Positions 55,770-64,000 of a stretch of 64,000 bases of DNA are shown one piece after another. The DNA comes from an uncultured Trueperaceae bacterium. Its GTDB lineage: Bacteria > Deinococcota > Deinococci > Deinococcales > Trueperaceae. The translations under genes were made by a program, and so were the position numbers. Every line of letters begins with the position of its first letter. Positions within the stretch are counted from its first letter, which is position 1. The stretch lies in the NCBI GenBank assembly GCA_963727505.1, contig CAVSGP010000008.1:17704-81703 (forward strand). The letters run 5' to 3'. The notes under the pieces were generated by a model. The model had not been told where the DNA came from, did not search any database, and was given only the letters and a program-made list of their open reading frames with translations.

Positions 55770-56735
55770 TCAGGCCTGGGGGCGCTGCGTTAGGGCGAGG
55801 AAGGCGTCCTCGAGGCCGGCGCCGCCGACCTCCAGGTCGTGCAGGGCGGGGTCGCGCTGCAGGAGCTCGAGCACCACGGCTTCGGCGTGGCTGGTGAGGA
55901 TCTCGACGGCGGCGCCGTTGCGCTCCACCGAGACGACGCCGTCGAGGGAGCGGATCAGCTCGGGTTCGAGGCCGGTGACGGCGTGCACGCGCCGGCCGGC
56001 GGTGCGCGACTTGATCTCCGCGGGGGTCCCCTCCGCGATCACGGTGCCGTGGTCGACGACCACGATGCGGTCGGCCAGCGCGTCGGCCTCCTCCAGGTAG
56101 TGCGTGGTGAGCACGACGGTGCGGCCGGAGCCGATGAAGTCGCGCACCTGCTGCCAGAAGGCGCGGCGGGCGCCGACGTCGAGACCGGTGGTGGGCTCGT
56201 CGAGGAACAGCAGGTCGGGGTTTCCGACCAGAGCCAGCGCGAAGTGCACGCGCTGCTTCTGCCCACCGGAGAGCTTGCCGTAGGGCCGGTCGGCGACCTC
56301 CACCAGGTCGGCGAGCTCGAGGGCGCGGGCGACCGGCAGCGGCGCCGGGTAGTAGCTCGCGAACAGCTCCAGATGCTCGCGCACCCTGAGGGTCGCGGGC
56401 ACGCCGGAGATCTGCAGCATCGCGCCGACGCGCACCTTGGCGGCGGTGCTCTGCGGGTCTCCGCCGAAGAGCCGGACGTCGCCGGCGGTGGGCTTGAGCA
56501 ACCCCAGCAGCAGCCCGACGGCCGTGGTCTTGCCGGCGCCGTTGGGGCCAAGAAGCGCCAGCACCTCGCCGGAGCGGACTTTCAGGTCGACGCCGCGCAG
56601 GGCCTGCACCGTGCCGTAGTTCTTGCGAACGCCCTTCAGCTCGGCCACGACGTGCCCGGGCGCCTCAGTGAACCCGGATAGCTCACGCTGTCGAGCCGAG
56701 AAGGCGGATGGCATGGTCATCGGTTGCGTTTCCAT
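55770..56735 (-). CDS. ABC transporter ATP-binding protein (YvfR-like)
   Basis: GPNGAGKTT, LSGGQKQR, LDEPTTGLD, TTHYLEEA. Confidence 0.95.
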   Translation of the reverse strand: METQPMTMPSAFSARQRELSGFTEAPGHVVAELKGVRKNYGTVQALRGVDLKVRSGEVLALLGPNGAGKTTAVGLLLGLLKPTAGDVRLFGGDPQSTAAKVRVGAMLQISGVPATLRVREHLELFASYYPAPLPVARALELADLVEVADRPYGKLSGGQKQRVHFALALVGNPDLLFLDEPTTGLDVGARRAFWQQVRDFIGSGRTVVLTTHYLEEADALADRIVVVDHGTVIAEGTPAEIKSRTAGRRVHAVTGLEPELIRSLDGVVSVERNGAAVEILTSHAEAVVLELLQRDPALHDLEVGGAGLEDAFLALTQRPQA

Positions 56736-56796
56736 GCCTGTAAGTGTCGCGCGCTACGCGGGTGGCGCCGTAGTGAGCAGCGTCATGGTGCAGGGG

Positions 56797-56808
56797 TGAC
56801 ATCTGTCA
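56797..56808. promoter_or_regulatory. Putative DesR-like response-regulator binding site
   Basis: TGACA-TC-TGTCA inverted repeat with extra GTCAT half-sites, about 60 bp upstream of the ABC-TCS operon. Confidence 0.55.
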
Positions 56809-57038
56809 TGGCCGTCATCGGCCGAACCGTGCCCGGAGCGTTCCGGGGCATGTGGCCGCCGGTCCGCGTGTTCTAGGCGCTCGCGAGGTGGGCGGTGTGG
56901 CCCGTTCTGCGTGGTGTGCAGCGCCTCATGACCGACCCCGACCGCAACTTCACCCCACGGAACGAAGAGTGCATGCGGCCGGCCGCGGGGGCTCTGGTTG
57001 GCGGCGGCGTGTGCAGGTCGTGGAGTGGTGTTCTGCCC

Positions 57039-57257
57039 TCACGCCTTCAGGAGGCGGTAGAGCCAGCGTGGCGTGAGGTCCGGGCGGTCCGGTCCGGCGC
57101 TGCGCGTCGGGTTGCGGTTGGGTCCGGTGGCCTGCATGCGGGTGGATTCGGCGATCTCGGTGCGGTCGGGGCGGTGGTGCCCCTGGCGGTGGTAGTCGGC
57201 GGTGCGTCGGAAGTCCTTGTAGCGTTCCATCGCGGCGCGCATCTCGGTGTGGGTCAT
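57039..57257 (-). CDS. Small hypothetical protein (72 aa)
   Basis: Strong AAGGAGGAA RBS before ATG 57257; no recognisable motif. Confidence 0.5.
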   Translation of the reverse strand: MTHTEMRAAMERYKDFRRTADYHRQGHHRPDRTEIAESTRMQATGPNRNPTRSAGPDRPDLTPRWLYRLLKA

Positions 57258-57452
57258 GGTCTTCCTCCTTCTTGCCTCCACCATGCGGCGGGCTCTACTT
57301 GAGACGAAAGGGATCAAGTCAAGTAGAGGATGGTGCGCCTCGTGCGCCTGCGGTCCGGGGTGCCCGGAGGCACACGAGGCGCCCGAGCGGGGCGCTCAGG
57401 GCCGCGGCTCCGGGACCGCCGCTACCGCCTGCCTGACGCGGGTCGGGCACGG

Positions 57453-57481
57453 TTGACCGGTCCCCGACGGCCGAGTAGACT
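57453..57481 (+). promoter_or_regulatory. tRNA promoter
   Basis: TTGACC-17 bp-TAGACT. Confidence 0.75.
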
Positions 57482-57495
57482 ACGTAACGCATCGC

Positions 57496-57570
57496 GGGCG
57501 GTTAGCTCAGCGGGAGAGCACTCGCTTCACACGCGAGGGGTCGTAGGTTCAAATCCTATACCGCCCACCA
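57496..57570 (+). tRNA. tRNA-Val (anticodon CAC)
   Basis: Acceptor stem GGGCGGT/ACCGCCC + ACCA; D arm AGCTCAGCGGGAGAGC; anticodon arm CTCGC-TTCACAC-GCGAG; T loop GTTCAAATC. Confidence 0.97.
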
Positions 57571-57593
57571 CAGAGAACAGCGTCACAGACGCG

Positions 57594-57635
57594 AACGCCG
57601 CCAGCTCGTCCGCTTGAGTTGGCGGCGTTGTCTTT
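57594..57635 (+). terminator. Intrinsic terminator after the tRNA
   Basis: AACGCCGCCAGCTC-8 nt-GAGTTGGCGGCGTT followed by GTCTTT. Confidence 0.75.
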
Positions 57636-57639
57636 GCAT

Positions 57640-57661
57640 TTGACAGCCAATTGACAGCCAA
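57640..57661. repeat. 11-bp tandem direct repeat (candidate integrase arm-type sites)
   Basis: TTGACAGCCAA x2, 70 bp from the tRNA 3' end. Confidence 0.7.
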
Positions 57662-57832
57662 TGATCAAGGGCACGTCAGAGAGATCTCATCACGGGCTGT
57701 CTGAGCGAAGACATTCATTGCTGCGGGCGTTGTCTTCCGCCAGAGGGCGGGAGGCTCGCTCGACGTGGTGATGTAGACCAGTTCGTGTCCGGGGGAAAGG
57801 GTTCAGGGCTGCATGAGCGCCGCCCTGGAGCC

Positions 57833-58072
57833 GACTTGTGGACTTGTGGAGTCTTGCAGTTGGACACTTGTGGACTTGAAGACTTGTGGAGCGGAACAGT
57901 AGGCCCCTGCGCCAGTGGAACACTGGACCAGTAGCCTACTAGCACACTGGGGCAGCGGCCTACTAGAACAGTGTGCTAGTAGGCCAGAGTTCCACTACAA
58001 CACTGGTCCAGTAGTCCAGTAGACCCCTGGCTTAGTGGAACAGTAGACCAGTAGCACACTGTTCCAGTAGCT
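57833..58072. repeat. Array of 30 degenerate octamers in unbroken 8-bp phase
   Basis: Seven GACTTGTG-type units, one bridging unit, then 22 units of consensus YASTRGNN (CAGTAGAC, CACTGGAC, TACTAGCA...). Confidence 0.9.
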
Positions 58073-58346
58073 CAGCGCGGTGTTCGAGCCCGGGGTGCCT
58101 GTGGCCCTTCCCGAAGCCGGGCGGAGCGACCAGCGCTACCCTCGGTAGCGAGAGGGGGGAGGCTCGATCGTCATCGGCCGAGCCGCATGGGGGCCTTGAG
58201 GCTTGATCCCAACCAGCTCTGCGGGCCGGTCGAGCCAGCCACGTCAAGCAGGGAACCTACCACCACATATGGTGCACTGAGCCGCCGGAAAGCCTGCATG
58301 CGCCGTCCCGCAGCTCCGGCTAGATCGTGGTCGTCTTGGCCGGGTC

Positions 58347-58690
58347 TTGCTGATCGGTGCCGTCGTGCTGGCCGTAGCGCTCCGGCTGGGAAGCAGTGGA
58401 GCCGCGTCCGTCTGCAAGGCGGTGGCGCCTCAGCAGCACATCACGGTGTCGTTCACCAGCGGATCCGAGTGGGACCCAGATCTACACCCAGGGGCTCACG
58501 ACCCCCGAGGTCACCGCATTGCTCCCTGGCCAGTCGTCCACCTTCACCGGCTACGCCGACTGGAACCCTGTCGCAACCAACGCCAGAATCTCTTTCGTCG
58601 ACAGCGCTGGCAACATGCTCAAGCCCATGACCCGTGCGCAGGTCAACGCCCTTGGGGACGCCGATCGTACGCTTGGCGTTGAAGGCCCCC
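58347..58690 (+). pseudogene. Degraded FxLYD-like domain exported protein
   Basis: Hydrophobic segment and HITVSFT in one frame continue as DPSGTQIY...LLPGQSSTF in another; no clean start or stop. Confidence 0.4.
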
Positions 58691-58717
58691 TACGATGGCG
58701 CGAAGAGGAGATAGAAC

Positions 58718-59005
58718 ATGGCACAGACCAACAACACCAAGGGTCGTCAGGAGGAGTACTGGGCGCTGGTCCTCCGGTACGACGACAGAGGCCACGTCAG
58801 CATCCCAGAGGGAATGACTCCGCCACCACCCGATGTCACGGGCCTGGAAGGAAGAACCTTCCAAGACATCGCCAACAAGATGGCCCAGGAGGGCGGCTGG
58901 GAGCTGATCTCGTCGTCGTTCATCGGCGTCGCTCCCTATTCCTGCATGGTCTGGTTCCGGCGTTCCACCACGCGCAGCAATCCGCCCACGATGTCCTCCA
59001 TCTAG
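58718..59005 (+). CDS. Small protein, DUF4177-like
   Basis: GAGGAG RBS; EY...N.MAQEGGWELIS...WFRR pattern. Confidence 0.55.
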   Translation: MAQTNNTKGRQEEYWALVLRYDDRGHVSIPEGMTPPPPDVTGLEGRTFQDIANKMAQEGGWELISSSFIGVAPYSCMVWFRRSTTRSNPPTMSSI

Positions 59006-59048
59006 TCGCCGGAGGCTCGAGCAGGAGTCCGAAGTCGGCTGGAAGCGC

Positions 59049-59582
59049 CTATATCAAGCCGGCCTGGCGCAGCGAGGCAACGACATCCTTCATGGGGATG
59101 AACATGCGCTGGCCGTCCCCCAACGGCTCGAAGCTGTAGCGCCGGTAGAAGGCCGCCGCCTGCTCGTGCAGTGGGTCCACCACCACGGCCGCGCTGGCCA
59201 CCGTGGTGGAAGCCTTGACGGCCAGGATGAGGGCCTCCCGTAGCAGCTGGCCACCCAGCCCCTGCCCCTGGAAGGCCCGGTCTACGGCTAGGCGCCCCAC
59301 CAGGGTGGCGGGGACGTCGGGGTAGCGGGGAAGATGCTTCCGGGCAGCTTCGGGCACGGCTTGCAGGGCCACTGCGGAGTTGGCGAGGGTGACGTAGCCG
59401 GTGATCCGGTCTGGCTGGTCGTCGGGGGTCAGCACGTACACCACGGCCGCTCGCCGATCGCTGTCCTGCCCGGCGAAGCGGCGCAGGTAGGTGTCGAGGC
59501 TCTCCTCGCCACACGCGAAGCCGCGCCGGTCGTGCCGGCGCGGATCCAGGAGCTGCAGGGTGTAGGTAGCCTCGGAGCTCAC
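59049..59582 (-). CDS. GNAT-family acetyltransferase toxin (AtaT/TacT type)
   Basis: FACGEESLDTYL, GYVTL, PATLVGRLAVD..FQGQGLG, VVVD, AAAFY.RYSF. Confidence 0.92.
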   Translation of the reverse strand: MSSEATYTLQLLDPRRHDRRGFACGEESLDTYLRRFAGQDSDRRAAVVYVLTPDDQPDRITGYVTLANSAVALQAVPEAARKHLPRYPDVPATLVGRLAVDRAFQGQGLGGQLLREALILAVKASTTVASAAVVVDPLHEQAAAFYRRYSFEPLGDGQRMFIPMKDVVASLRQAGLI

Positions 59583-59884
59583 TTCCGGAACAGGTCCACC
59601 AGTTCCTTGCGGGGCCGTCCTGGGCCACTCAGGGCGTCCACGAAGCGCTGGCTGGCTTCAGCGTCGAGCTCGAAGCGGGTGTGCTGCTCAACGATGCGCG
59701 TGGCCTCCTGCGAAGCCACGGACAGCACGAAGTCGGTGACGCTCACGCCGCTGTAGGCGGCGGCCTGCTCGATGCGCTCCTTGACGTCGACCGGCACACG
59801 GAGACCCAGGCGCTCGGTCGGCGAGGCCGAGGCGGTGCGCTTGGCCTTCTTGTCCTTGCGCGGCGCGGCAACGGGCGTGCTCAT
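59579..59884 (-). CDS. DUF1778 (AtaR/TacA-type) RHH antitoxin
   Basis: ERLGLRV...IEQAAA..G.SVTDFV...F..AL..P; overlaps the toxin start by 4 nt. Confidence 0.9.
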   Translation of the reverse strand: MSTPVAAPRKDKKAKRTASASPTERLGLRVPVDVKERIEQAAAYSGVSVTDFVLSVASQEATRIVEQHTRFELDAEASQRFVDALSGPGRPRKELVDLFRK

Positions 59885-59980
59885 GGTCTCACGCGGTCCT
59901 TCCTGCGGCCGGGATCCGAGGCCAAGTTGGCTTCGGGCGGGCCGGACTGGCTCATCCTGGGCCAACTTGTCCGCAAGCAC

Positions 59981-60009
59981 AGTGTACGCACGGTGTACGT
60001 ACGCGTCAA
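59981..60009 (-). promoter_or_regulatory. Toxin-antitoxin promoter/operator
   Basis: Minus strand TTGACG-17 bp-TACACT overlapped by GTACG-N9-CGTAC. Confidence 0.65.
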
Positions 60010-60063
60010 CGAGGCGCGGCACACGCCGGCAAGAGGGGCGAGAATGACGGACATGGGGGAAGC

Positions 60064-60639
60064 ATGGGCCTGACTCCGCTGTTGATCGTCCTCGTAGTGC
60101 TCATGGTGGGTGTGGGCATTCTCAGCAGGCTGGCGCCGCAACGGCGCAGCGGTTCCGCGGCCAAGCTAACCTTCCCGTACTACGGCAGGAAGGCGCTGTT
60201 CTCCGCCGCAGAGCGATCCTTCCTCGGGGTCCTCGAGCAGGCCGTCGAGGGCCGCTACCGCGTCTTCGGTAAGGTCCGCCTGGCGGACGTGCTGGGCGTC
60301 AAGGCGGGCACGGGGGCGGGGGAGAGGCAGCGCGCCCTGAACCGGGTGCTGGCCAAGCACGTTGACTTCGTGCTATGCCACCCAGAGGACCTGACGATCG
60401 CCGCGCTGGTAGAGCTCGACGACAGCTCCCACAAGCGGACCGATCGACGGGCGCGTGACGCCTTCCTGGAGCAGGCCTGCGCCGCCGCCAGCGTGCGGCT
60501 GCTGCGCTTCCCCGTTCGTCCCCACTACGCCCTAGGCGAGGTGCGCGCCGGGCTGGCATCACTGGATGGTGGCATCGGCCCCGACACCCCACCCACGCCT
60601 TCGACGCCGACCATCGGCCGGCCTGGGGCACGCCCGTGA
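60064..60639 (+). CDS. DUF2726-domain protein
   Basis: N-terminal TM; LFSAAE..F..L, KVRLAD, KHVDFVL, VELDDSSH, RD. Confidence 0.9.
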   Translation: MGLTPLLIVLVVLMVGVGILSRLAPQRRSGSAAKLTFPYYGRKALFSAAERSFLGVLEQAVEGRYRVFGKVRLADVLGVKAGTGAGERQRALNRVLAKHVDFVLCHPEDLTIAALVELDDSSHKRTDRRARDAFLEQACAAASVRLLRFPVRPHYALGEVRAGLASLDGGIGPDTPPTPSTPTIGRPGARP

Positions 60640-63387
60640 CCCCCGAGGCCTTCGTCGACAAGTGGCGCCACGTGAGCGTCAAGGAGAGCGCCGCAGCGCA
60701 CTCCCACTTCGAGGACCTGTGCGAGCTGCTGGGCGTCGAGAAGCCGCTCGACGCCGACCCAGACGGCGACTGGTACACCTACGAGAAGCACGTCAGCAAG
60801 GCCGTCGGCGGCAAGGGCTACGCCGACGTCTGGAAGAAGGGCTACTTCGCCTGGGAGTACAAGGGCAAGCGCAAGAACCTGGACGACGCCTACCTGCAAC
60901 TGCTGCTCTACCGCGACGACCTGGCCAACCCGCCGCTGCTGATCGTCTCGGACCTCGAGCGCATCGAGATCCACACCAACTTCACCGGCACCAACAAGCG
61001 CCTCTACAAGCTCACCCTGGACGACCTGCTCGACAGCGAGAACCGGGAGTTGCTGCACAAGGCCTTCACGGATCCGGAGGCGCTCAACCCGCAGCACCAG
61101 CGTCAGCGCATCACCGAGGACGCCACCGCCCGCATCGGCGCGATCGCCCTCAAGCTCCGCGATCGCGGCCACGACCCGCAGCGCGTGGCGCACTTCCTCA
61201 TGCAGCTGGTGTTCGCACTGTTCGCCGAGGACGTCAAGCTGCTGCCCAACCACCTGGTGAGCGAAATCCTCGAGAAGACCAAGGGCAACCCGAAGCGTGC
61301 CCAGCAGTACCTCACCATGCTGTTCAACGCCATGGCCAGCGGGGGAGAAGTCCTGCTCCACGACGTGCCGTACTTCAACGGCGGGCTGTTCCAGAACGGC
61401 GAGGCCCTGGAGCTCACCAGCGAGGAACTCGGCATCCTCTACGAGGCCGCCCGGCTGGACTGGAGCGAGGTCGAGCCCGCCATCTTCGGCACCCTGTTCG
61501 AGCGCTCCCTGGACCCCCAGAAGCGCAGCCAGCTCGGCGCCCACTACACCAGCCGCCAGGACATCCTGCGCATCGTCCAGCCCGTCGTGATCGACCCACT
61601 GCGGCGGGAGTGGGCGGAGATCCGCGAGGAGGTTGAGAGGCGCCTCGATCGCGGCCACCACAAGAAGGCCGCCGAGCTCGTCGGCGCCTTCCTACAGAAG
61701 CTGCACAACGTGCGGGTGCTCGACCCCGCCTGCGGATCCGGCAACTTCCTGTACGTCGCCATGTAGCAGCTCAAGGAGCTCGAGAAGGAGGTCTCGGTGC
61801 TGGCGCAGCAGGTCAACGCGCCCAGCATGACCTTCGTGGGCCCCAAGCAGTTCTACGGCCTCGAGCTCAGCGTCTTCGCCGTCGAGCTCACCAGCATGGT
61901 CGTCTGGATCGGCTACCTGCAGTGGAGCCTCACCAACGGCCCCGGCAACTTCCAGACGCCCATCCTCGAGATACTCGACAACATCGTCCTGCACGACGCC
62001 CTGATGAACGACGACGGCAGCGAGTACGCGTGGCCGGAGGCCGACTTCATCATCGGCAACCCACCATTCATCGGCAACAAGCGCATGCGAATTGAGTTGG
62101 GATCCGCCTACGTCACGCGGCTCCGACAACTGTTCACCGATCGGCTTCCGAAGACAGTGGACTATGTCTGCTATTGGTTCGAGAAGGCGCGTGCCCGCAT
62201 CGACTCTGGAGCGTCACATAGAGCTGGGCTTATCGCCACGAACAGCATTACCCAGTCTCGAAACCGAGTTGTCCTTGACCGTATTACCTCGGGTTCCGGC
62301 ATCTTCATGGCATGGCCTGACCAGCCATGGGTGCTCGAAGGGGCATCGGTTCGCGTCAGCATCGTCGGGTTTGGTGTACACGGAAGCGGAGACTGCACGC
62401 TTTCGGGGGCAACAGTAGACAGGATCAACTCGAATCTCACCGCTTCACTGGCTCTGAGCCTTGCCCAGCGTCTACCGGGGAAGTCTCAACTCGTATTCGA
62501 AGGAATCTCCCCGGCCGGGCAGTTCGATGTTGGTGAGATGGTGGCCCAGACATGGCTGGACCTGCCGAACCCTAGCGGCGCTTCTAACCACGCCGTTCTC
62601 AAGCGCTATGTCGTGGCGAAGGACATCCTGGGCCGCGATCTCCACCGCTGGATTGTCGACTTCGGCAACATGAGTGAGTCCGAAGCTCGGCGATATGTCG
62701 TGCCCTTCGACTACATCGAACAGGCGGTCAAGCCAGGGAGGGCCGATAACCCACGAAAGGCCCGCCGCGATCGCTGGTGGATCTTCGGCGAGTCCAGACC
62801 CGCCATGCGCGAGGCCCTAGCCCCACTCGCCCGCTTCATCGCCACTCCGAAGACTTCGAAGCACCGCGTCTTCGTGTGGCTACCCTCGGGCACCCTGCCA
62901 TCGAGTCTCCTCGCTGTGTTTGCCTAGAAGACGACTACTCGTTTGGAGTCCTCCATTCGAAGGTTCACCAGCTCTGGGCGCTAGGCCAGAACGTGTCACT
63001 AGAGGATCGCCCGCGCTATACGCCCACCGTCTGCTTCGAAACCTTCCCCTTCCCACAGCCGGGCCGGGAAGAACCGTCGCAATAGCCTCGTGGGCCAAGC
63101 ACCTCGATGAGATTCGCAGGGGGATCCTCGAGAGTGACCCGAAGCTCACCATGACCAAGCTCTACAACGAGCTCGAGGAGCTCAAGGAGCACCGCGACAG
63201 CAGCCACCGCGCCTACCCCCTGCTGGTGGCCCACGAGAAGCTCGACGAGGCCGTGGCGGCCGCCTACGGCTGGGAGTGGCCGCTCGAGGACGAGGAGATC
63301 CTCAGGCGCCTGCTGGAGCTCAACCTGCAGCGCGCTACCGAGGAACAAGGAGGCCGACTACCGGTCAAGGACACATCAGAAGCCTGA
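60636..63387 (+). pseudogene. MmeI-like type IIG/IIL restriction-modification enzyme, inactivated
   Basis: AD...WEYK nuclease motif, FNGGLF, GAHYT, LDPACGSGNFL, GNPPF, RYTP..CFETFPFP, H..LD.AV..AYGW. In-frame TAG at 61764-61766 and frameshifts near 62923 and 63070. Confidence 0.9.
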
Positions 63388-63424
63388 AAGAACCCGCATG
63401 GGAGATTGGCCGTCGGGAGGAGAA

Positions 63425-63936
63425 ATGTTGATGACCAAGACGACCGTGGCACTGACTATCGTGACCGGAGTACTGCTCGGAACCTATGCCTTCGCTGGCG
63501 ACAAGTGGACGCAAGACAGTGGCATTCACTGTTCCAGCTCAACAAGGACCAGTTCTCGGGCGACAGCTACACGCTCATGTGCGCCAGCTTGTATGACTCA
63601 GCCGCAGAAGGCACGACACCACAGGACATCCGGGACTTGGTACGCAACCAGCTCGGCTTCATGGCTCCCGATTTCGACAAGAACACCGTCTTGCTCTGGT
63701 GCAAGGCTTCCCCACAGTCGGGTGCGCCGTACTTCTTCCCCATGGACCTTGGATACTCGTCGGATGGCTACAGCTACGACATCGGCTTCGGCGATTACCA
63801 AGAAATAAAAGGGTCATCGGGCAAGCTTCGAGGCGACGTCACACTGTTCTACGTCTTGAAGGGTGCCCAGTACGACAAGCCCTTCACCGTCTACCTCGAC
63901 GACGACTCCGTCAAGGTGACGCTTCCTGCTCCATGA
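63425..63936 (+). pseudogene. Secreted hypothetical protein, frameshifted
   Basis: GGAGGAG RBS and signal peptide (..VLLGTYAFA) in one frame; the body (SLFQLNKDQF...VTLPAP) is in another frame after about 63525. Confidence 0.55.
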
Positions 63937-64000
63937 GCGATCGGGCCAGCAGGCCCGATCGCCTGTAGTTCTGCAACTATTCAGCCAATCTCCGAGGGCA

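Follow-up and report, generated by a model that had tools for sequence, protein, structure and literature searches.

A strictly periodic, non-coding stretch of DNA is described here from the genome of an uncultured Trueperaceae bacterium (assembly GCA_963727505.1). A 64,000-nucleotide segment of its contig CAVSGP010000008.1 (positions 17,704 to 81,703; the segment is referred to as the window and its contig as C8) contains, at 57833-58072, a 240-bp array of 30 head-to-tail octamers placed at 57833+8k, with zero indels on direct reading. The array is well beyond chance and is a real feature of the genome. A specific protein lattice of some kind is probably what it represents. More tentatively, it may be an orphan, cooperative centromere or operator lattice of the ribbon-helix-helix (RHH) type that is part of a mobile element or was left behind by one; protein binding, the RHH-like nature of the protein and its role in partition or as an operator are what we infer from the features described below.

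Layout and unit anatomy of the array

The original prediction, made by a model from the letters alone, held that the octamers keep one phase throughout, and autocorrelation bears out the direct reading on this point: values are 0.52-0.57 at lags 8, 16, 24, 32, 40 and 48, against 0.07-0.32 at every other lag up to 48. The pattern NANTNG occurs in a single phase in 21 of the 30 units, where shuffled sequences (n = 5000) averaged 1.5 and never exceeded 5, and A.T occupancy amounts to 25 units in phase 0 versus 0-1 in each of the other seven phases. A five-unit pattern had one match in the window and none in 100 shuffles. When the entire genome (15 contigs, 3.26 Mb) was scanned with a sliding window, the array ranked first for 8-periodicity at 0.324, with the runner-up at 0.156. 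The lattice ends sharply on both sides, the eight octamers of either flank showing no continuation. As had been predicted, the phase is intact while the unit sequences have diverged, 27 of the 30 being distinct. The array has a GC content of 0.54 and is detected by Tandem Repeats Finder (TRF) in fragments only.

A coding remnant of a repeat protein, named with the original prediction as a competing source of such periodicity, was looked at and the array was found to be non-coding. Stops occur in all six frames across it, the longest open run is 54 codons, and lags 8, 16, 24 and 32 are equally strong, so that there is no 24-bp preference. Nor is it a CRISPR, as was also foreseen: CRISPR repeats are ~23-50 bp long and alternate with unique spacers of like length, whereas the units here are 8 bp, contiguous and spacerless.

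Three parts make up the array, all described on the plus strand. Block A (57833-57888) is composed of seven octamers with the consensus GACTTGTG, and the centre is C in 5/7, giving mainly one orientation. A bridging unit, GAGCGGAA (unit 8; 57889-57896), retains A2, G3 and G6 and has C at position 4. Block B (57897-58072) comprises the remaining 22 octamers (units 9-30), of the form Y-A-S-T-R-G-N-N, and its orientation is mixed, with 13 units centred on G and 9 on C. This division into 7, 1 and 22 units stands as originally described, but the two blocks do not belong to unrelated motif families, since both have the same A-S-T-N-G register; judged by their sequence, they are variants of one lattice.

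Over the 30 units, A occupies position 2 in 28/30, position 3 is restricted to C or G (30/30), T stands at position 4 in 27/30 and G at position 6 in 24/30, and the bases at position 7 are random (A9 C6 G6 T9). This profile is the pattern of a contacted core with a free spacer. Mismatches to the consensus number 10, 2, 14, 3, 18, 6, 21 and 17 at positions 1-8, with a heterogeneity chi2 of 51.5, the p-value of which is inflated because the units are related to each other. The unit can be written as C-YASTR-G, a pseudo-palindrome of 7 bp to which one free base is added, and the YASTR core is self-complementary. The quasi-palindromic character claimed for block B is upheld by this core, by the C found at position 8 in 13/22 of its units, and by matches of a two-unit pattern, 2/10 of which fall on the minus strand with a one-base shift. 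Unit direction is set solely by the central base, which is G in 16 units, C in 14 and never A or T.

A repeat search further revealed three modules of 43-49 nt within block B (57907-58070), in alternating orientation. The arms 57907-57949 and 57969-58011 are 74% complementary, the arms 57960-58008 and 58022-58070 are 76% complementary, and a perfect 16-nt inverted repeat is found at 57934-57949 / 57969-57984. The inverted modules and the G- or C-centred units all lie on a single 8-bp centre-to-centre grid, regardless of orientation. The modules have hairpin potential (fold z of -3.08 for DNA of the plus strand and -3.91 for RNA of the minus strand), which, with the perfect inverted repeat, would suit a single-stranded hairpin element, either a structured RNA or a rolling-circle single-strand origin or priming signal. 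Such an element appears highly improbable, however, as the conserved positions form a palindromic core on a fixed register and not paired columns, block A is without a partner arm, and Rfam gave no family at threshold for the array, with chance-level microRNA hairpin matches only.

Natural variants and look-alike arrays

Contigs from three public DNA runs (soil and sediment, from 2 studies) cover 57763-57971 and 57981-58206 with few differences, and because these independent contigs carry array sequence, an assembly artefact can be dismissed. These three, each with a small share of the stretch, were the only runs listed as containing it, and no RNA run was among them. In the contig over 57763-57971, 5 substitutions fall in the 70-bp flank versus 1 in 139 bp of array (at 57863, unit position 7; Fisher p 0.017). 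The contig over 57981-58206 has one array substitution (58072, unit position 8) and one 24-bp deletion, equal to three whole units, which is the sole natural indel seen in the array. Pooled, the variants amount to 2 in ~207 bp of array, both at free positions, versus 7 in ~204 bp of flanks (p 0.10). It had been proposed that the phase is under selection, and the removal of exactly three units agrees with this, but slippage between identical CAGTAGAC units would yield the same deletion, and so keep the phase, without selection. Taken together, the variants, the uneven mismatches, the C/G-only centre and the indel-free divergence are suggestive, although not decisive, of constraint on the array. 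A cooperative binding lattice explains the position-specific conservation and the C/G-only centre better than does a decaying repeat.

The latter possibility, a short tandem array that is functionless or not protein-specific, generated by slippage, unequal exchange or inverted duplication and carried in with the island in which it lies, must nevertheless be taken seriously, since such arrays clearly exist. Besides the slippage route to whole-unit indels such as the 24-bp deletion, it draws on the array being without a partner gene found, and on intergenic octamer arrays being common: TACTYGAM in a genome of the same family (G027), CAGTAGGG, NNNTGGAG in many phyla, and runs on contigs C9 and C2 of the window's own genome. 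The look-alike arrays, however, have 1-5 unit types in 6-14 units, while here 27 of 30 are distinct and no indel has intervened; the mismatches are very uneven over positions, the centre being restricted to C or G; the array is the only one of its kind in the genome; and no donor of dispersed YASTRG was found among 31 species-representative matches. A tandem array of this kind is accordingly regarded as unlikely.

Related arrays were sought by BLAST and by pattern scans, the latter needing near-exact fits, so that diverged relatives can be missed. The plasmid occurrences that the original prediction had proposed to look for did not appear: blastn of the array gave no match against plasmids (E up to 10) or phages (E up to 1). 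A five-unit YASTRG scan of viral contigs returned 71 loci, nearly all near-perfect microsatellites, together with a few arrays that are heterogeneous, low in GC and located in phage structural or terminase regions. With a four-unit G-then-C pattern, 31 loci were found in the species representatives of genome_contigs, all short and of few unit types, and at least 121 in metagenome_contigs, for 80 of which the flanks were examined. A six-unit ASTNG scan of viral contigs gave at least 120 loci, none of them beside par genes among the matches listed. Of 363 genomes of the order, 5 (the window's own included) matched an eight-unit lattice when up to 3 mismatches were allowed, and none was alike. 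The best look-alike among the metagenome_contigs matches listed (L172/L223) was rejected; it lies in CAG-type simple-repeat surroundings and a 7-bp unit breaks its phase.

Several other octamer families were observed. The genome G027 carries tandem TACTYGAM octamers on dozens of contigs, with 124 three-unit matches (74 forward, 50 reverse) and 0 for the control; its array loci include L269:7405-7476, L270:7681-7736, L271:9000-9047 and 20 more (L394-L413). Among 26 of these arrays examined, 15 lie up to 50 bp upstream of a same-strand gene start (by our own open reading frame (ORF) calls), with ordinary housekeeping genes adjoining, which suggests a family of repeats proximal to leaders or promoters. 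Perfect CAGTAGGG arrays of 5-14 units, some as convergent pairs, are found in IMG/VR contigs (L035, L039, L049, L050, L054, L058, L060, L063, L068, L070, L073) at varied intergenic spots of gene-transfer-agent-like head-tail clusters (terminase, portal, capsid, tail tube, DUF2460); these contigs are 65-72% GC and the arrays are mostly just upstream of the next same-strand gene. In genome_contigs L093, L098, L103, L105, L112 and others, octamers of NNNTGGAG (or TGGAA) are followed by a short centre and then by an inverted CTCCANNN array; these are intergenic in Planctomycetota, Deltaproteobacteria and a Bifidobacterium metagenome-assembled genome, and each unit contains a Shine-Dalgarno-like GGAG. 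The window's genome itself has GC-rich octamer runs of ~8 units each between convergent genes, CTACGGAG-like at G000:C9:138960 and CCCTGACG-like at G000:C2:189560. Lastly, low-GC phage contigs of IMG/VR (L027 and L031, and also L036, L046, L051, L055, L080) contain a heterogeneous TACTAGAC / TAGTAGAG octamer array, which in L027 and L031 stands between a 161-162-aa ORF and a 506-aa ORF. From size and position these ORFs look like the small and large terminase, and the array is possibly a packaging or promoter site.

Known protein lattices and the search for a partner

MetJ met-boxes are 8-bp tandem sites, and the omega heptads of pSM19035 provide further protein lattices. The closest parallels to the unit anatomy of the array come from partition systems. 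In TP228, according to the available text of the report (PMC3130281), 20 degenerate ACTC boxes with 4-bp spacers form two clusters (parH with 12 and OF with 8), in direct and inverted orientation; one dimer of the RHH protein ParG occupies each box, coating is cooperative, and inverted or rearranged boxes are still active. As far as that text goes, parH-OF and the array have in common an 8-bp register, degenerate two-way boxes and two adjacent clusters, and the ACTC box resembles the A-C-T-N / N-A-G-T core of the array. Unlike the array, the TP228 boxes are there placed directly upstream of parF-parG, have AT-rich spacers and number 20, whereas the array has 30 units and no parA or RHH gene was found for it. 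The original prediction had also allowed for two different proteins, one for each block, but these are not required, since blocks A and B have a common core and both TP228 clusters are described as bound by a single protein (PMC3130281, available text).

In the record of mycobacteriophage RedRock, which thus has an actinobacterial host, parS-L and parS-R consist of octamers that follow one another without a gap or change of phase, have a conserved core and a variable remainder, and directly adjoin parA and parB, and a like octamer build is seen in 9 arrays at 5 phage parAB loci. RedRock ParB is 89 aa long and its ParA is small; ParB homologues are annotated as Arc-like. Such parS sites share contiguous in-phase 8-bp units and a conserved core with the array, and the RedRock unit GAGTAGTC resembles the array's CAGTAGTC, but they have 6-10 units and the conserved core is TCGAG, TCGAC or TCACG. 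A third system, the plasmid pCXC100 of the high-GC actinobacterium Leifsonia, has nine unspaced and rather divergent 9-bp repeats that RHH ParB dimers bind cooperatively, as the available part of the source relates (PMC3074162). The unspaced, divergent short repeats are again like the array; the 9-bp register, the non-palindromic and solely direct repeats, their count of nine and their position adjoining parA-parB, on the same partial source, are not.

The array is tentatively interpreted along these lines as a double-stranded-DNA binding lattice for a small dimeric RHH protein. By analogy, one dimer would occupy each 8-bp pseudo-palindromic unit, with the C/G centre setting the orientation of the site, and dimers 8 bp apart would touch and wrap the whole 240 bp in a cooperative helical sleeve. 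Because neighbouring dimers are proposed to touch, centre-to-centre spacing would be kept while non-contacted positions drift. The array would be a part or remnant of a mobile element that came in at a tRNA-Val hot spot, and would now be an orphan site with a protein partner that, within the families searched, is not encoded in the assembled genome. Of the readings considered, a cooperative lattice is the best supported, and the RHH type is favoured by the position constraint, the orientation-independent spacing, the proven look-alikes, the variants and the location of the array in foreign DNA at a hot spot. As in type Ib partition sites, short contiguous degenerate repeats (4-10 bp) in a fixed register are found in the array.

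A number of observations weigh against an RHH lattice, and the array is not classed here as a centromere. Known type Ib arrays abut parA/parB, versus a gap of 275 bp downstream of the array that is followed by a frameshifted, unrelated ORF, and an adjacent pair of small parA and RHH genes was not found on C8 up to the contig end at 64000. With 30 units the array exceeds the usual number three- to fourfold, its spacers lack the AT-richness of those in TP228, and its conserved unit positions differ from those of phage parS arrays. Profiles for ParA (AAA_31, CbiA), ParG and RHH_1 had no match on C8, nor had those for Prim-Pol and Replicase, in line with the original statement that no cognate Par or Rep gene is in the window. 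The assembly is 97% complete, with the island cut by the contig end at 64000, and across the genome RHH_1 and ParG had no match, ParA-like genes lie on other contigs only, and the Arc profile gave two sub-threshold matches only (E 0.009 and 0.087), on contigs C4 and C10. When RedRock ParA and ParB were compared with the assembly by tblastn, no relative was found, with weak P-loop matches elsewhere only. The sole nearby RHH protein is TacA, whose predicted operator is ~1.9 kb from the array and of a different motif; TacA was rejected as partner on account of these tacA promoter repeats. Among the matches listed, no related array beside par genes was found in BLAST or pattern scans, and octamer arrays without par context, such as those of G027, mean that the 8-bp tandem build alone is no proof of a centromere. 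The cooperative lattice originally predicted, whether as centromere, origin or recombination site, is thus borne out in its position-specific conservation and in sharing the build of known centromeres and operators, but not by any linked Par, Rep or Tra gene or by a homologous array.

Two other classes of 8-bp repeat were also compared. The clt sequences of Streptomyces are 8-bp repeats on mobile elements, and it has been suggested that clt-like sequences in chromosomes mobilise islands. If the array, which does sit in an island, were such a site, its repeats would be read by an FtsK-like TraB translocase supplied in trans, and the island would be mobilisable. This seems quite improbable. The clt repeats are direct and oriented and are read by the winged helix of TraB, and a polar reader of this kind would be expected to use oriented repeats, whereas the array has pseudo-palindromic two-way units; as for their orientation, block A is mostly one way (5/7) and block B mixed (13 G, 9 C). 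No TraB was found, the single FtsK_SpoIIIE match of the genome being a 1299-aa frame on C14, with none on C8, that is read as the chromosomal FtsK. Within the families searched, no genes of an actinomycete integrative and conjugative element (int, rep) were found.

A plasmid-type replication origin, with DnaA-box-like sites in block A and Rep iterons in a long interrupted inverted repeat in block B, is likewise improbable, although several features point in its direction. Block A contains TGTGGAC twice and TGTGGAG twice, which are DnaA-box-like cores on the minus strand; on that strand it reads AAGTCCACA twice (5 copies genome-wide), and the host oriC-type box TTGTCCACA occurs 7 times genome-wide. 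This is a weak lead, both labels deriving from what we take to be the DnaA-box consensus. Block B contains GTGGAAC twice and GTTCCAC and GTTCCAG once each, besides its inverted modules. Iterons, however, are usually 17-22 bp. No clear AT-rich unwinding stretch lies beside the array, where the lowest 40-bp GC is 0.47; Prim-Pol and Replicase had no match in the genome, other Rep families being outside the search, and no rep-like gene was found among the ORFs scanned at 57039-64000. The precedent for an origin of this type is the Streptomyces theta plasmid pWTY27, in which, according to the available text, a ~270-bp non-coding region contains five GTGGGAAC and five complement copies, and these make up a ~105-bp inverted repeat to which RepA binds (PMC3583192). 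It is like the array in being a non-coding stretch (of ~270-300 bp) and in having 8-bp repeats on both strands and a long interrupted inverted repeat, and GTGGGAAC resembles GTGGAAC; unlike the array, it has ten repeats, adjoins repA-repB and, in the available part of that report, is not presented as a gap-free lattice.

The tRNA-Val island and its implications

Upstream of the array is a tRNA-Val gene with anticodon CAC (57496-57570, plus strand; ARAGORN, and Rfam tRNA at 68.7 bits). An att-like stretch on the same strand (57526-57662) consists of the tRNA 3' half and a further 92 bp, as delimited by its repetition in a genome of the same genus (G003), by the BLAST boundary, by TRF and by a terminator scan. 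Within it are a terminator-like hairpin (57610-57625) and two 11-bp direct repeats, TTGACAGCCAA (57640-57662). Likeness to relatives ends at 57662 when 56000-64000 is compared by BLAST with their loci, and the DNA beyond (57663-64000) is an island absent from 61 relatives, with a GC of 0.64 versus 0.71 in the rest of the window. For the 921 bp around the array, matches by DNA likeness in the 61 relatives were to the tRNA and att-like tail only. In G003, a stretch equal to 57526-57662 occurs five or six times along 50 kb (C10:978-49662; L011-L013) and bounds cargo-only segments containing STAND/LuxR regulators, an HsdM fragment, a beta-lactamase-family gene, MMPL and a heavy-metal ATPase. No par, rep, tra or int was found in these G003 islands, and the locus looks like a decayed tandem-island hot spot. 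Because the tRNA 3' part is repeated in G003 as the boundary of islands, the tRNA-Val locus is an integration hot spot. A second copy of the tRNA 3' end (attR) was not found in the assembly, nor was a contig-end overlap that extends the island, and four small contigs, profiled by ORF and GC only with no Pfam scan, have GC as in the rest of the genome.

The array begins 170 bp into the island and 263 bp past the end of tRNA-Val. This position would be compatible with an operator or architectural array for another regulator, that is, an excisionase or recombination directionality factor (RDF) acting at a nearby att site, or a repressor of downstream genes, and RHH and Xis-type proteins do form filaments on tandem sites. 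Such a role is decidedly improbable given that the only tyrosine recombinases of the assembly are two on contig C4 and that the downstream ORF is frameshifted. To our knowledge, RDF arrays have far fewer than thirty sites, and these are spaced by the helical repeat and not by 8 bp.

Downstream of the array, a non-coding segment of ~100 bp (58148-58252) recurs with few substitutions in contigs of three runs from 2 studies. One 1054-nt public contig shares this segment and nothing else of the window, and another contig joins 57878 straight to 58148, thereby omitting block B, with one side of the junction 30 nt long. An exact 24-mer from the segment had no match in metagenome_contigs. The plus-strand fold of 58080-58270 has a z of -2.17, with no Rfam match.

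The frameshifted ORF that follows (58347 to ~58700-58716) looks like a gene for a small secreted protein, with a signal-peptide-like start, continuation in another frame from ~58465 and no family match. Beyond it lies a 95-aa ORF (58718-59005) with one weak match in 362 other genomes, no Pfam or PHROG family and a weak DUF4177 lead (Atlas). The GNAT toxin TacT (59049-59582) and TacA (59579-60022) are encoded on the minus strand and are followed by a DUF2726 protein (60064-60639) and by an MmeI-like methyltransferase-endonuclease (type IIL / BREX-PglX-like) in three consecutive frames (60636-61766, 61797-62927 and 62920-63387), a gene either broken or mis-assembled. The divergent promoter region of tacA and DUF2726 contains 2.5 copies of an 11-bp repeat, GCACGGTGTAC (59977-60003), which is likely the TacA operator.

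These neighbours raise a further reading, in which the array serves as a centromere decoy on the chromosome, placed in a defence island together with TacAT, DUF2726 and the MmeI-like enzyme. Plasmids or plasmid-prophages entering the cell would lose their RHH partition protein to this very large bank of sites and segregate poorly, with partition incompatibility serving as immunity; 30 degenerate two-way units of two sub-types would broaden the set of proteins titrated. This decoy function is held to be very improbable.

Should no protein bind the array, perfect phase with a degenerate unit would have arisen without a binder, a caution against calling such arrays centromeres. If, on the other hand, a protein does coat it, the array would be the longest natural RHH-type lattice described, with 30 sites versus 20 in TP228 and 6-10 in actinophage arrays, and the first to be found orphaned in a chromosome island. 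It would then provide a clean substrate for learning how spacing, orientation and spacer sequence govern cooperative coating, and would raise the questions of whether centromere-like sites are kept by islands for episomal life or by hosts as decoys.

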